DNA from: an uncultured virus (IMG/VR IMGVR_UViG_3300003322_001263)
Taxonomy: Duplodnaviria > Heunggongvirae > Uroviricota > Caudoviricetes
Direction: 5' to 3' (one strand)
DNA: 64,000 nucleotides
Virus record (IMG/VR): IMGVR_UViG_3300003322_001263
The translations under genes were made by a program, and so were the position numbers. Below the pieces are notes generated by a model. It did no database searches, was not told the origin of the DNA, and saw only the letters and a program-made list of their open reading frames with translations. Every line of letters begins with the position of its first letter. Within the stretch, counting starts at the first letter, position 1. Positions 9,971 through 59,907 of the stretch are shown here, in pieces.

Positions 9971-10024
9971 AAATTTATTTTTTTACAAGTTACTGGTCTC
10001 CTTTTTATATTTTTTAGTTTGGAT

Positions 10025-10050
10025 AAAAAACCCACTGTAGAAACAGCGGG
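10025..10050 (-). terminator. Hairpin with TTTCTA loop and U-tract
   Basis: Minus strand CCCGCTG-TTTCTA-CAGTGGG-TTTTTT. Confidence 0.7.
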
Positions 10051-10094
10051 TTATAACGAAAATATATGCCTAAATACAAATACAAAAGCAATTT

Positions 10095-25411: not shown

Positions 25412-25702
25412 ATGAAACGGTTCTTAATTTGGGTTAATATACCCTACCAAATTGCCAACCATGTAGTAGGCAAACACCATACACAAGCCCATAGGCGTAT
25501 AGCTGGCTTTTTTGTAATGTTTTGCGGTGTAGGTATAGCGCATTTTGCACAGCATGAATTTAACGCTGTAGTCGGTTTATTTGGCGACCTTATAGGTTAT
25601 AGCATACACGCAACCGGTTTTATGCCATACGCTACCGCAATTGAAAACAGCATTATTGAACACCAAAAAACAGAACAAAATGAACACCAACCATGCAACT
25701 AA
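25412..25702 (+). CDS. Small His-rich membrane protein
   Basis: Two hydrophobic helices; between the cupin and the isocyanide synthase. Confidence 0.6.
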   Translation: MKRFLIWVNIPYQIANHVVGKHHTQAHRRIAGFFVMFCGVGIAHFAQHEFNAVVGLFGDLIGYSIHATGFMPYATAIENSIIEHQKTEQNEHQPCN

Positions 25703-26585
25703 TCAAATATTAGATACGTTTAGCCGTTACCGTATGGCACCAACTGCCATAGATCAATATGAAACAACCGGCAAGCTAATACTTGCCCAACGCATAGATG
25801 GCTTTGTAAATAGCCAGCAAACAATACGGTTTGCCATGCTTGGCTTCCCGTTTAAAAGCACTAATACGCGCGATAAAGTACTTGGCACTTTACCAGATTT
25901 AGGCGAACAGCTTACCGTTGAAAATTTTGAAGCCTTTAATGCCGACGTTAAAAAGGTATATGCGCCGGGGGTTAAAATAGTGGTAGCTAGTGATGGATAT
26001 GTATTTAATGACCTATTAAGCATTAGCGATTCTATAGTGCGAACATACGCGCAGGTAAGTAGTAATTTCAGCGGAGACAACACCATGGAAATAATAGACC
26101 TTAATCGCTTTTATAGCGATGGCAGTATGGCCGATAAACGCAACCGGCTTATGCAACAATTTGGCTATACTTGGGAAAAAATGGAACAAGAAATACTTTT
26201 TAACCCCGATGTTAACTTTTTATACCGGGGGATGCTAAAGTTTATGAGCGAAGAACTTGCATGGCATGACTTTCCAAGCAAAAACCAGCGCGAAAAGGCT
26301 GCTAAAAAACTTGTGCGTGAAATGATGCTACGCAACGAAGCCTATAATTTGCTTGTGCGCAAGGAACTTGCCGACCACATACGGCTAAGTATGCACCCAA
26401 GTGTAAATAATGGTTATAAATACAGTTTTAAACTGATCCCGGGTGAGCATACCAATCATAGCGCGTGGCATAGTGCTATTGTTATGCATAACGGACAAGC
26501 TGCTACTATGCATAAAAAAGATGCTCTTGCCGCAGGTTACCAATTAGTATATAAAGACGGCCAGCCTTACAATTTTGAATATTAA
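25680..26585 (+). CDS. Isocyanide (isonitrile) synthase, Dit1/PvcA family
   Basis: GFPFKS.N..KVLG.LPDLGE, VYAPG, SDGYVFNDLL, IRLSMHP, AWH. Confidence 0.9.
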   Translation: MNTNHATNQILDTFSRYRMAPTAIDQYETTGKLILAQRIDGFVNSQQTIRFAMLGFPFKSTNTRDKVLGTLPDLGEQLTVENFEAFNADVKKVYAPGVKIVVASDGYVFNDLLSISDSIVRTYAQVSSNFSGDNTMEIIDLNRFYSDGSMADKRNRLMQQFGYTWEKMEQEILFNPDVNFLYRGMLKFMSEELAWHDFPSKNQREKAAKKLVREMMLRNEAYNLLVRKELADHIRLSMHPSVNNGYKYSFKLIPGEHTNHSAWHSAIVMHNGQAATMHKKDALAAGYQLVYKDGQPYNFEY

Positions 26586-26928: not shown

Positions 26929-27294
26929 CTAACATGCGCGCGTAAAAACGCGCGCATGTGTTTTTAAATTTTAAAATTATGGGATTTTATATCAATCAAA
27001 TTAATGGCGTAGATGCGCCCCGTAAAGGCAAAGCTGAATTTATAGCAGCCAATACAAATACATTATTTATTGAACCGCCTACTGAATGGCGAGAAGGATT
27101 AGTTTGCGTAATAGATAACGGTGTATTTGATGCTGCTGGGTATGCGTATGACGAAGACGAAATGCGCGTATTTTTATCGCCTGATCATAATAGGCCACGC
27201 CCGCGGCAATGGCTATTAGTTCCAGAAGCCAAGGCAATAGTTGGATATAAAGAGTAATTAACTAACATGCACATGCGTAAAAGTGTGCGCATGT
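26926..27294 (+). repeat. Two related hairpins (TAACTAACATGC...GCATGT) flanking ORF 26979..27257
   Basis: 26926-26959 and 27259-27294. Confidence 0.65.
26979..27257 (+). CDS. Hypothetical phage protein
   Basis: MGFYIN...LVCVIDNG.FDAAGYAY. Confidence 0.65.
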   Translation: MGFYINQINGVDAPRKGKAEFIAANTNTLFIEPPTEWREGLVCVIDNGVFDAAGYAYDEDEMRVFLSPDHNRPRPRQWLLVPEAKAIVGYKE

Positions 27295-27327
27295 ATTTAA
27301 AATTTAACTTCACTAAAAAAATACAAA

Positions 27328-27651: not shown

Positions 27652-27706
27652 TTGATTTTTATTTTTATAAAATACTGTAATATTGCTGCCTGCAATAAAC
27701 TATAGT

Positions 27707-28204
27707 ATGAACGAACAAGAATTTATTAAGAATATACAAGCGCATGAACAAGATATTCATAAAGTGTGCCGTATTTATTATAAAGAGTATAGCCGGGAGG
27801 ATTTAATGCAAGAAATTATTGCAGAAACGTGGAGGTCGCTAGGCAAATGGAAAAATAATTGTAAATTTAGCACATGGCTGCAAACAATAGCGCGTAACGT
27901 TTGCATAAATACGTTACGTAAAAAAGCAACACAGCCTAAAATTATTTTATGTGGCGACTACAATAATGAAATTAAATACGAAGATAACAGTGACGACCTT
28001 ATTAAACAATTACAGGTACATGAATGTTATAATAGTATTATAAACACAATAGAAAAACCATACAGATTGCTTTTCCATAAATATGTATATGGTGCAACCT
28101 TCAAGGAATTAGAACAACTATCTGGCATAAACGCAAATGCCTTGCGGGTTAAAATATATCGCATAAAAAAGCAAATAAAAATTTTCGCTAACCAAGCTCT
28201 GTGA
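27707..28204 (+). CDS. ECF sigma-70 factor 3
   Basis: IHKVCRIY, EDLMQEI...W, KFSTWL..IARN.CI..LRK, SGINANALRVKIYRIK. Confidence 0.88.
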   Translation: MNEQEFIKNIQAHEQDIHKVCRIYYKEYSREDLMQEIIAETWRSLGKWKNNCKFSTWLQTIARNVCINTLRKKATQPKIILCGDYNNEIKYEDNSDDLIKQLQVHECYNSIINTIEKPYRLLFHKYVYGATFKELEQLSGINANALRVKIYRIKKQIKIFANQAL

Positions 28205-28319
28205 TTTTATGCCCCTCCGCTAAAATCACCCGGCCATGCGTTTCTACGCTTGTGGCCCACTTTTTAAAAAAGTTCTTTTAAATATATTAGTTACGTAAGG
28301 TTTCTAATTGGCAAGCCTT

Positions 28320-28394
28320 AACGCGGTAGCTTAAATACGGTAAAGCAGTAGAGGCTAATCTATTGATGCGGGTTCGATCCCCGTTCGCGTGCAA
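28320..28394 (+). tRNA. Atypical tRNA-like element; 6-nt anticodon loop GGCTAA, identity unclear
   Basis: Acceptor ACGCGG/TCGCGT, D arm GCTT/AAGC, stem GTAGA/TCTAT, T arm GCGGG-TTCGATC-CCCGT. Confidence 0.6.
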
Positions 28395-28480
28395 ATCTGA
28401 TTTTAAAACAATCAGGTGTTACGTGTTAAATTTTCATAATAAAAGTGTTATGGGCGGCGTTTCTACGCTGCCCAATTTAC

Positions 28481-28604
28481 GCGCCCGTTGCGAAATTGGT
28501 TATAAGCTGCTACAGGTGACACCCTGTATAAAAAGATCGTAAGCGATGCAGTGGCCGCGTTCGTGGTACTGCGTTTGCAGGTTCGAATCCTGCCGGGTGC
28601 GCAA
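28481..28604 (+). ncRNA. tRNA-like RNA of about 120 nt with an expanded multi-hairpin centre
   Basis: Acceptor GCGCCCG/CGGGTGC (G3.U70), T arm GCAGG-TTCGAAT-CCTGC, Leu-like D region, three internal hairpins. Confidence 0.65.
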
Positions 28605-28796
28605 TTTTTCTTCCTTTGGGTTCAATAGCAATCGTATGCAGTTTGCAAAATGGGTTGGAAACTGCTCGGCAAGGTGTTTCTACACTTTGCTTTTAAATTT
28701 ATTTTTTATATATTTCATAAGGGCCACTTTAGTAATTTAAAGGTTAACACGGGCGTCTATTTCCATAGCGCGCCCCTTTTTTTAAACTATATAATT

Positions 28797-29309
28797 ATGA
28801 CGCATACTATACCGCAAGACAAAAAAAATTGGCTATTAAATACAGCATGGAAAAAGCTTACGATTAAGCAAATAGCAGCCGAATCAAATATTAATGTTAG
28901 TTTAATTAGTAAATTTTATAAAGAAAACAATATAGAACCTGTTAAAAGGCGTGATGTTATAGCCAGCGGGTTAATAGATTTGATTAATACTGGTAACCAC
29001 GAATGTAAAAGCGTTTCTGATTTGGCGTTAATATTTAATTGTAGTACTACATTGATTAAGGGTATTATAGACGAGTATAAGCTGCAATTCAATATACGTA
29101 AGTATAAAAACGGGAGCGAAAAGATATCAAATATTAACGAAAATCGTTTACAAGCTGCTAAAGCGCGTGACGAGCATATATTAAATATGCGCAAAGAACG
29201 CGCTAATCATGCCGTATACACTCAAAGCGGTAGCCAGCTTATAGACGACTGCCGTGGCTTAAAAACTACACTGCGCCTAAAAACATATCTTACAAATGCG
29301 AACCTTTGA
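28797..29309 (+). CDS. Tandem HTH protein
   Basis: LTIKQIAAESNINVSLIS and SVSDLALIFNCSTTLI. Confidence 0.65.
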   Translation: MTHTIPQDKKNWLLNTAWKKLTIKQIAAESNINVSLISKFYKENNIEPVKRRDVIASGLIDLINTGNHECKSVSDLALIFNCSTTLIKGIIDEYKLQFNIRKYKNGSEKISNINENRLQAAKARDEHILNMRKERANHAVYTQSGSQLIDDCRGLKTTLRLKTYLTNANL

Positions 29310-29862
29310 ACAAGTAGTAAAAAAATGGTGGCCATACGTATGTTCTATAGCTAATAACAAAATAGGTTCTGATGCTGGCGACGTAGCTAGTAAAGTATTT
29401 GAAAAAATGCATAATGTATGGAAGAGCGATTACGATGCTGATTGGCATATAATTAGTTGGCTTAAAATAACTACAACCAATATGTGCGTAGATCATATTA
29501 GGCGCGCCAATTACAGAAAAAAAGTTATACTTAATTATACAGAACAGATTTATGACGGTAAAGAGCCAAGCACAGAACAAGATAACAAAGAAAAAGAACT
29601 GCGCGAAGTTGAACAATATGTAATTGGCTTTTTACAATCCGAAATTGAAAAACTGCCTGAAAAAACAAAACAGGTTTTCAGGCTGCATTGCATTGAACAG
29701 CTTAATTATAGGCAGATAGCAGAAAAATTGCATATAGATAAGAACACCGTAACGCATCAAATGAAAACCGCGCGAACCATATTGTTGGTAAACGTTATAG
29801 CTAATGAAAATGCTGCGCCAATGTTAGCGCAGCAATTACTCTTTAAATCCGGTGTAAAATAA
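29296..29862 (+). CDS. ECF sigma-70 factor 4
   Basis: AGDVASKVF, SWL....NMCVDHIRR, LPEKTKQVF.L....LNYRQIAEKL.I..NTV. Confidence 0.88.
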   Translation: MRTFEQVVKKWWPYVCSIANNKIGSDAGDVASKVFEKMHNVWKSDYDADWHIISWLKITTTNMCVDHIRRANYRKKVILNYTEQIYDGKEPSTEQDNKEKELREVEQYVIGFLQSEIEKLPEKTKQVFRLHCIEQLNYRQIAEKLHIDKNTVTHQMKTARTILLVNVIANENAAPMLAQQLLFKSGVK

Positions 29863-45804: not shown

Positions 45805-45884
45805 TAACTAGTGGTGTAACTAGGTAACATAGATAGATACGCGATCTATAAACGATGCAGGTTCGATTCCTGCCTAGTTAGCAA
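45805..45884 (+). tRNA. Atypical tRNA-like element; nominal anticodon CGC but A33
   Basis: Acceptor TAACTAG/CTAGTTA, D GTGT/ACAT, ATAGA-TACGCGA-TCTAT, T arm GCAGG-TTCGATT-CCTGC. Confidence 0.6.
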
Positions 45885-45920
45885 TTTTAACTACACATAT
45901 AAATGTTAAAAATTCACAAC

Positions 45921-45994
45921 CGCGTTAACGACTACGCGATACGGTAGTGCATCGGTCGAGATTATGGCTTCAGTTATAATCTAAGGCAATGCTG
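45921..45994 (+). ncRNA. Pseudoknotted RNA with pistol-ribozyme-like topology
   Basis: P1, P2, P3 and a pseudoknot can be paired by eye; catalytic consensus not matched. Confidence 0.35.
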
Positions 45995-46036
45995 ACTTTT
46001 AGCCGAGTATTTTCAAAGTAAAACTCGGCATTCATT

Positions 46037-55417: not shown

Positions 55418-55466
55418 CTTTGCATGGATATACCCATCCACGGCCCGGTGTTTCTACATCGGGCTT

Positions 55467-55700
55467 TTTGTTTATTTGAATATAATGTGTATATTTGTAT
55501 AATAAATATTTTAGTGGCGGTTCAATTATTTAATGTCCCGCATTTGTTAGCAGTTATTGGTATGTTTTTCATGGCGCGGGTGGTTTGTTTCCCGCGCCAT
55601 ATTTTAAACAAGGGCAATCGTTTTTCATCATACAGTAACAAAGATTAGGATTTTAGTTTAAGAAGTACGTGTGATCCCCTGTTTTTACAGGGGATTTTTA
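55467..55700 (+). ncRNA. Promoter followed by two tandem putative sRNAs, each ending in a hairpin
   Basis: TTTG(55467)-19-TATATTTG(55490); hairpins 55571-55600 and 55674-55695; no convincing ORF. Confidence 0.5.
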
Positions 55701-58743: not shown

Positions 58744-58950
58744 TAAAAAAACGGCGGCTTTTAAACCACCGTTTTGCTTCTAGCGATTCTTTTTCACAAA
58801 TTTCTATTACTTCACTTTCAGGCAGGCAGACCTGACTACAAATGTAATTAAATTATTTACACTACCAATATTTTTTTGTACATTTGTTATTCTCATAAAA
58901 GCAATAATTTTTCTCATTGGACTGGCCGGGTATTTCTATACCCGGCTTTA
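58744..58950. ncRNA. Divergent pair of putative sRNAs
   Basis: Back-to-back TACATTTG boxes (minus 58846-58839, plus 58879-58886), each followed by a hairpin and U-tract. Confidence 0.5.
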
Positions 58951-59907
58951 TTTATTATTGGCAGCAACCCATTTTTTATATGCTGAACTACTTATTACTT
59001 CATTATATAAATTAGGGTCTTGATTCTTTACAAGAGTGGCACTTACTGGCCCGGCTTGGTGGCCACAATTGTAACCGCCCAACAGCGTTAAAAAATTGGC
59101 TACTGTGGTGGTTGGGTACATACCATCGGGTAGCCCGGTTTTAGCATTTAAAGGCACTTTAACGCTCTTGCCATCTTTTGTATAATACAAATCCTTTGCC
59201 TTTAATAAGTCTGGTATTTGGCTTATATGGAAGTACCTGCGTTCGTGCATGGCAATACAGAATGGGCGGCTGGTATTAATCAATGTATTTTGATAGCTAT
59301 ACCATTCATAACCCAAATCGCTACTTGCTATCTGTGTATAGTTCCTGTTATATTGATTAATGCTATCTACTGTAATTTGTTTTGTATACCTGTCTAATAA
59401 GCCGGGGCTTTTGTCGGTAGTTAAAATTGCTTCTTTTAGATGCGATTGCATATCTTTATAACTACCGCCTTGGGTTACATTCTGTGTAAGTATATCACTT
59501 ATTGGCTGCGCTACATTTGCATCAATGCCATTTTCCATTAGCTTTGTTACGGTATCTTGAATAGCTATCTGTTTAATTTGCTTCAAAATACTGCTTGGTT
59601 TAAATGTGCTTTCCACTGTACGCCAATAACTATTTTGCAATGTAGTAAGGTCATTAAACGATTTTACAAACTGCTTTACTTGGCTCTTATAACTATCGGT
59701 CAATATAACCTTAAGCAATTTATTCTTGATATTGCTTACGATTTTAATATTGCCTATGGTTGGCTTAATGCGCCCGTCTTGCAAATCTAGCTTTCGAAGC
59801 TCTTCGTCTAAGCTTTGCAGCATATCGGTTTGACTGGCCGGTATCTGCTCAATAAAAGTGCTTATGGCGTCGTCTATGCGTGCTATTATGTCTTTAAAAT
59901 TTGGCAT
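58948..59907 (-). CDS. Head morphogenesis/minor capsid protein (MuF-like)
   Basis: SRPFC and GGYNCGH; follows the portal. Confidence 0.75.
   Translation of the reverse strand: MPNFKDIIARIDDAISTFIEQIPASQTDMLQSLDEELRKLDLQDGRIKPTIGNIKIVSNIKNKLLKVILTDSYKSQVKQFVKSFNDLTTLQNSYWRTVESTFKPSSILKQIKQIAIQDTVTKLMENGIDANVAQPISDILTQNVTQGGSYKDMQSHLKEAILTTDKSPGLLDRYTKQITVDSINQYNRNYTQIASSDLGYEWYSYQNTLINTSRPFCIAMHERRYFHISQIPDLLKAKDLYYTKDGKSVKVPLNAKTGLPDGMYPTTTVANFLTLLGGYNCGHQAGPVSATLVKNQDPNLYNEVISSSAYKKWVAANNK

Follow-up and report, generated by a model that had tools for sequence, protein, structure and literature searches.

tRNA look-alikes as possible processing punctuation in a phage cassette of putative host-type small RNAs, two of them complementary to start codons

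The closest described relatives in design are two small RNA families of B. thetaiotaomicron, FopS (RF04319) and GibS (RF04182). As presented in PMC11697453, FopS consists of a single-stranded 5′ seed followed by a terminator and represses translation by pairing near start codons; GibS, by the account in PMC7366714, acts likewise, also near start codons. The supplement of the former paper gives a FopS 5′ consensus containing UUUUUCAUAG and AUUUAAGGUUAACA, and its text describes binding and antagonism of FopS by RbpB and a FopS copy in a Caudovirales phage (PMC11697453). The phage array considered here is like both families, as described there, in its open 5′ UUUCAUA seed, terminator hairpin, predicted start-codon pairing and multicopy character, and one of its units (C) has in common with FopS an AUUUA(A)AGGUUAACA block. 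In contrast, the hairpin loop is different and the array stands behind non-coding tRNA mimics, whereas FopS is classed as intergenic, antisense or 3′-UTR-derived and the main text of PMC11697453 puts none behind a tRNA.

Other parallels concern the tRNA side. E. coli 3′ETS(leuZ), as entered in Table 1 of PMC13501541, is also a functional RNA from a tRNA precursor; it is, however, a spacer of real tRNAs that binds RyhB and RybB, whereas the array has non-functional mimics and a seed-bearing sRNA with a hairpin. The TMERs of murine gammaherpesvirus 68, in the description of PMC4337559, combine a viral, non-aminoacylated tRNA-like head with co-transcribed regulatory small RNAs and RNase Z processing, but belong to a eukaryotic Pol III/miRNA pathway, so that the relation is one of analogy, not homology. 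From the tRNA region of phage T4 come the small RNAs RnaC and RnaD, of unknown role, for which PMC3014915 describes no seed or terminator unit (a comparison by description only). Theta ribozymes, according to PMC10879173, adjoin phage tRNAs and are tied to their processing; they differ in being self-cleaving, the array having no HDV-like Rfam match. A search of titles and abstract starts found no published description of tRNA-mimic-released sRNA arrays in phages, subscription journals and the candidate-RNA tables of PMC10690425 being outside its scope.

The array lies at 28205-28796 of the window, itself the opening 64 kb of a virus genome of 73,393 bases, among whose genes are those for a terminase, a portal, a primase-polymerase, four small sigma factors and DNA modification (Pfam/PHROG). 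The host is likely a member of the Chitinophagaceae, as suggested by exact copies of the unit A hairpin in two genomes of Hydrotalea (2 of the 4 matches), a genus which we take to belong to that family, and by the recurrence of other array motifs in the family; the sets called host-family genomes below are drawn from the family of one Hydrotalea genome (G001). One DNA run, possibly the source sample, covers the array without listed differences. Searches for close relatives with sigma 3, an alignment of the HTH protein and terminase gave no usable loci (one 33% terminase match), and blastn against phage records returned T-arm fragments only. Elsewhere in the genome, 12711-16378 and 40804-49635 hold a large DNA/glycan-modification kit (Tet/JBP oxygenase, TET-associated glycosyltransferase, radical SAM, C5 methylase and several glycosyl- and methyltransferases), and 25641-26585 (+) holds a Dit1/PvcA isonitrile synthase gene.

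The stretch 28205-28796 is a real, non-random RNA cassette, with the order hairpin, boxA, tRNA-like 1, unit A, tRNA-like 2, unit B, unit C. An earlier, sequence-only reading had listed these parts in this order, and inspection finds every one of them in place. It had also put them between two ECF sigma genes. The flanking products are indeed small sigma-70-family factors, sigma 3 at 27707..28204 (+; Pfam Sigma70_r2 1e-13, phrog_1740 3e-16; the ORF is extendable to a TTG at 27683) and sigma 4 at 29296..29862 (+; Pfam/PHROG sigma matches), the ECF label itself resting on size and partial Pfam/PHROG sigma matches. The ‘tandem HTH’ gene between array and sigma 4 (28797..29309, +; 170 aa) finds no match in Pfam; a PHROG DNA-binding match (E 4e-6) and an Atlas HTH_23-like lead (0.91) make its product a likely DNA-binding protein of HTH type. 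It has three relatives at 59-62% identity; one of these and one sigma 4 relative both come from contigs of 32,155, a hint of conservation of the pair. The start of the HTH gene is 13 nt past the U-tract of unit C, so that the gene would have to be expressed by read-through or from a promoter within the array.

Two hairpins are predicted by folding at the sigma 3 stop (28201..28265, +). The first (28201-28229), overlapping the stop, has a C-rich loop exposing CCCCUCC, an anti-Shine-Dalgarno-like sequence; the second, 28232-28257, is of the GU-UUCU-AC type that recurs below, with a short U5 tail and without canonical seed. The pair is likely a weak terminator or a 3′-UTR unit. Further upstream, between short ORFs ahead of sigma 3, are two related ACATGC...GCATGT hairpins with U/A tails (26932-26960 and 27265-27296, +).

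The first of the tRNA-like heads, at 28320..28392 (+), has an Asn/Lys-type body, scores 38.4 bits with the Rfam tRNA model (cut-off 29), pairs 6 of 7 bp in the acceptor and 5 bp in the T arm, and carries a 6-nt anticodon loop, an A1.G72 mismatch and no encoded CCA. Among 19 viral matches, the normal tRNAs most like it are mainly of Asn/Lys/Arg type, and every one has a 7-nt loop; patterns taken from its own sequence retrieved normal tRNAs only. The second head (28481..28601, +) extends to 121 nt, its intact 7-bp acceptor and 5-bp T arm enclosing a bloated middle with a UUCG hairpin; at 25.2 bits it is under the Rfam cut-off (E 0.004 in a 406-nt search; fold z -2.7), and the Rfam alignment offers no alignable or usable anticodon arm. 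ARAGORN calls neither head, permissive settings giving noise. Both heads have the acceptor-on-T-arm arrangement of RF00005, and neither has the 7-nt loop, U33 and 5-bp stem of a canonical tRNA in that family. Judged from sequence, then, both keep acceptor and T arms and cannot decode, which bears out the earlier description of kept acceptor and T arms with broken anticodon arms.

A descriptor of T arm plus acceptor finds three elements genome-wide, the two heads and 45805-45882; not one of 100 dinucleotide shuffles contains any. The third element is another aberrant tRNA (ARAGORN Ala-CGC, loop TACGCGA without U33) that has a TAGA...TCTAT stem in common with tRNA-like 1. Behind it, within 45805-46030 (+), is a structured RNA of about 150 nt, with fold z -3.75, in which neither seed nor loop motif occurs; a handle of similar type may here carry another cargo.

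Of the three units, A (28393..28480, +), supported by folding, a host-built model and the seed test, comprises a 5′ hairpin (28395-28417), an open seed TTTTCATA (28431-28438) and a GU-UUCU-AC hairpin (28451-28474) that lacks a U-tract, the next head beginning 7 nt on; its fold z is -4.7. Unit B (28602..28697, +; folding and motif search) has an open 5′ stretch with an atypical rather than a canonical seed, a AGCAATCGT block (28627-28635) common to one host subfamily, an inner hairpin and a GU-UUCU-AC terminator (28668-28691) with a U tail. Unit C (28700..28786, +; motif search, folding, seed test), which is not adjacent to any tRNA, has the seed TTTCATAA (28713-28720), a second block TTTAAAGGTTAACA (28736-28749) and a terminator with UUCC loop and U7 (28751-28775). 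Computed folding leaves the A and C seeds mostly accessible, the unpaired probability being 0.64-0.75. Real minus-strand genes behind the seeds were considered and dismissed, the antisense frames there having only 3 and 12 codons; an ECF-type CGTCTA promoter inside unit C was likewise dropped, the hexamer being uninformative since it is found 36 times in the genome.

The array hairpins have z-scores of -3.2, -6.0 and -5.5, and GTTTCTAC occurs five times in the window against 1.14 expected, three of the five being in the array. Possession of the loop is not enough to identify an sRNA, because two further GTTTCTAC hairpins, at 10042 and 55452, are without seed. These belong to seedless GU-UUCU-AC hairpins with U tails at 10023-10075 (-) and 55440-55500 (+), the former directly behind a promoter-like TATATTTTCG and the latter followed by a TATATTTG box. 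A stand-alone unit at 58858-58955 (+) combines a TACATTTG promoter box, two TTCTCAT seeds and an AU-UUCU-AU terminator; its seed enrichment is not significant, and it scores 25.6 bits with a model built from 20 host units and used to score the phage. With that model unit A gives 27.1 bits over its full length (E 0.006), a score that is partly circular, because the search pattern came from the phage, and that the seedless hairpin at 55440 exceeds (30.1).

That GU-UUCU-AC hairpins are ordinary host terminators, a reading based on the U tails of three more such hairpins in the phage genome, was rejected after a survey of an unselected 800 kb, drawn from two genomes of the host family. Because none of the 82 terminator-like hairpins found there has this loop, it is not a generic terminator loop. 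What it marks is better seen from the copies. The Hydrotalea copy of the unit A hairpin also has a seed upstream. Among 24 exact 12-mer matches in an unselected sample, eight have stems of at least 8 bp, and seven of these eight are intergenic with U tails; a seed is found in three of the seven by script and, by eye, a seed or close variant in five. The combined pattern of seed and loop occurs in 34 of 61 host-family genomes, its reversed form in 8 of 61; GCGTTTCTACGC alone shows no enrichment in hosts over its reversed control. On inspection of 30 host seed-plus-hairpin loci, 26 proved to be intergenic units of about 50 nt and four to lie inside genes, many of the intergenic ones being just downstream of a TAnnTTT(G/A) promoter-like box. 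Rfam has no name for any of the ten such loci scanned. From this survey, seed plus GU-UUCU-AC hairpin likely marks, mostly, a multicopy sRNA-like family of the host.

Relation to FopS is one of design. Unit C has both FopS consensus blocks and unit A the first; the R1-type UUUCAUA seed is in a single-stranded 5′ part in A and C and absent from B, and of the 3′ terminator B and C have hairpin and U-tract, A the hairpin only. RF04319 finds no member in the phage genome, its best match being unit C at 10.8 bits and E 2.5 (cut-off 56), and none in 21 host-family genomes at E 0.01; GibS RF04182 (cut-off 115 bits) has no match in the array. The units are not members of FopS, but likely resemble it in action.

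Complementarity to gene starts was assessed as contiguous pairing of at least 8 bp over the AUG, with starts, called mechanically as first ATG, set against internal AUGs. For the unit A seed the host figures are 63 of 495 starts versus 229 of 3651 internal AUGs (p 9e-7) and those for the phage 20 of 131 versus 19 of 358; for unit C they are 43/495 versus 152/3651 (p 3e-5) in the host and 17/131 versus 19/358 in the phage. The second block of C is enriched upstream of host starts (20/495 against 54/3651), and 25 of 30 host matches to the two-block motif of C are reverse complements of real gene starts. The 5′ stretch of unit B shows no start-codon enrichment in this test. By computed pairing, then, the A and C seeds are complementary to real start codons more often than to internal AUGs. 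Mean duplex energy, with internal-AUG controls, favours starts for A only (p 0.03, 1 of 20 shuffles being as good), and not for B or C. The best phage partner of unit C is the leader of ORF 22069 (-18.6 kcal/mol), only 2 of 132 phage starts beating the 5% background threshold for this unit.

Upstream, the boxA-like 10-mer AAAGTTCTTT is present as first described, at 28269..28278 (+), one base off the 28270 given before, and 41 nt ahead of tRNA-like 1. In the host the same motif stands between promoters and tRNA operons: 24 of 41 host-family genomes have a promoter-like TTTGC and, after it, AAAGTTCTTT, against 1 of 41 for the reversed control. Among 25 such loci, only ten of which were scanned with Rfam, seven have Rfam-confirmed tRNAs close downstream; 12 of the 25 precede an ORF starting MAKEI, presumably L11, and one an ORF starting MVSRR, presumably NusB. 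Because it is promoter-linked ahead of host tRNAs, AAAGTTCTTT is a genuine leader signal of stable RNAs in the likely host. No TAnnTTT(G/A) box occurs between 27862 and 28694, where there is a TAAATTTA box, and no canonical promoter upstream of boxA; the hairpin with U5 (28232-28265) stands just upstream of boxA, in the path of the precursor.

If the heads serve as punctuation, as the sequence-only reading had supposed, the same unit should sit behind any tRNA top half. A search for a T-loop, then a seed, then the loop motif, in which no base pairing was required, yields 42 viral matches, 26 of them with a stem of at least 7 bp, against 4 of 210 background sites; these 26 loci are not independent. 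Ten are near-identical contigs whose head, of 62-64 nt, has no anticodon arm, seven lie behind tmRNA (six by ARAGORN, one by Rfam), four have bloated or unclassified heads, two a Ser-type element and three doubtful heads, the bloated ones being 95-124 nt. Of 17 matches in genomes, 5 have such a stem; all 5 are in records labelled Deminuibacter, Parafilimonas or Chitinophagaceae, with tRNA-Cys, tRNA-Met or a Met-like element as head. A tandem hairpin-head-seed pattern gave one genome match outside Bacteroidota; a stricter head-plus-seed pattern gave only five hairpins in 126 matches, two of them identical in sequence, and boxA plus head plus seed one credible locus in 20 viral matches. At most loci the seed begins 5-20 nt past the head, too close for a separate promoter. 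Heads of tRNA, tmRNA, mini and bloated type are thus all found, their only common feature being acceptor plus T arm, which is the part read by RNase P and RNase Z. Just 2 of 33 host tRNAs encode CCA, and 20 of 21 host-family genomes have a full-length RNase Z match (nine over cut-off); together with the top-half fold, these features suggest that the heads would be RNase P and RNase Z substrates.

Individual loci show the variety of settings. In contig L125 the design of unit A recurs, the head being followed by a 5′ hairpin, an open seed and the loop hairpin (fold z -4.6), and the seed region mirrors that phage's own repeated leaders. The record also contains a seed-bearing spacer, with a tRNA-Leu on one side and a 121-nt mimic on the other, and after these the boxA motif. 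On six viral and metagenome contigs (L128, L176, L346, L351, L366 and L372) a seed-plus-hairpin sRNA is 5-35 nt behind the 3′ end of a full tmRNA. The closest architectural twin of the array is a tRNA cluster at 600-1170 of contig L349 (minus strand as read), with two hairpin units between tRNAs, both without U-tracts.

Punctuation also implies that a unit before another head should need no terminator U-tract, and the counts go that way. A U-tract (at least six U in the next 10 nt) follows the hairpin in 0 of 7 units with a next head within 15 nt and in 11 of 15 terminal units (Fisher p 0.004), a difference that is partly structural, a head 4-7 nt away filling part of the 10-nt window. The rows are few, one locus per lineage giving 19 loci with 22 hairpins, this window included and two units being from one contig. 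Interchangeable heads and this U-tract difference, both seen by sequence comparison, lend support to the punctuation proposal.

We therefore consider it reasonably probable that the array is a polycistronic cassette of host-type antisense sRNAs in which the two tRNA look-alikes act as cutting marks only. From its anatomy we infer a course of transcription, cleavage, stability and repression as follows. The precursor would likely be read through from upstream and likely be protected by a boxA/Nus signal. Host RNase P would cut at the 5′ end of each head and RNase Z after each discriminator, the predicted cut sites at the heads being exact to the base. Processing would generate both ends of the released unit A but only the 5′ end of B, which, like C, would end at its own terminator. 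A and C would pair via the open UUUCAUA seed, C also via its second block, with start-codon regions, and the pairing would lower translation of many host and phage mRNAs, as FopS and GibS do in Bacteroides.

The released units might instead be decoys that titrate RbpB-like RRM proteins or mimic or compete with the host sRNA family. RRM proteins are present in 13 of 13 host-family genomes, FopS is bound and antagonised by RbpB in the account of PMC11697453, the conserved loop (closed by U-A in 20 of 20 hairpins) suggests a protein handle, and unit B has kept loop and subfamily block but not seed. We rate this as rather unlikely in view of the open, start-complementary seeds of A and C and the mirroring of own-phage leaders by the L125 seed region. 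Somewhat more doubtful still is a reading in which the function lies with the tRNA-like RNAs themselves, as decoys that occupy anticodon nucleases or other defences binding tRNA (compare the orphan T4 RnaC/RnaD), the spacers being by-products with stabilising hairpins. The heads do fold stably, the third aberrant tRNA (45805-45882) has no seed-hairpin unit behind it, and with gammaherpesvirus 68 the tRNA-like part alone is described as having a phenotype (PMC4337559); yet heads are exchanged among tRNA, tmRNA, mini and bloated types while seed plus hairpin is constant, and the same units occur headless in hosts.

Independent expression, each unit having its own promoter (phage-sigma or weak host) and its own hairpin end and the tRNA remnants being incidental, would fit the frequency of own promoters in host copies, the four phage sigma factors and the TAAATTTA box at 28694, which could start unit C. 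It is very unlikely given that unit A, which adjoins the next head, lacks a U-tract, that the U-tract rule extends across loci and that head-seed gaps are mostly below 20 nt. Hardly any credence is given to a captured fragment of a host tRNA-sRNA operon, decaying and functionless: tRNA-sRNA-tRNA layouts do exist in host genomes (L338, L324), and A1.G72 in tRNA-like 1 and the atypical seed of unit B could be signs of decay, but damage is confined to the anticodon domains, with acceptor, T arm and all hairpins still paired, and the same selective loss is seen in many unrelated contigs.

Returning to the cassette with cutting marks, a broader proposition, possible rather than probable, is that Bacteroidota phages run a modular RNA-silencing cassette in which tRNA mimics serve as RNase P/Z handles by which the host's tRNA enzymes release several start-codon-blocking sRNAs from a single boxA-antiterminated transcript. 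Such a cassette would be what TMERs are to herpesviruses, in natural bacterial form, and would alter which host and phage mRNAs are translated during infection. If true, it would give a job to phage ‘pseudo-tRNAs’ that annotation tools discard, and would add a route of bacterial sRNA biogenesis with dedicated tRNA mimics as processing punctuation. The start-codon-mirror strategy of FopS and GibS would also reach beyond gut Bacteroides, into a family of environmental bacteria and the phages of that family.
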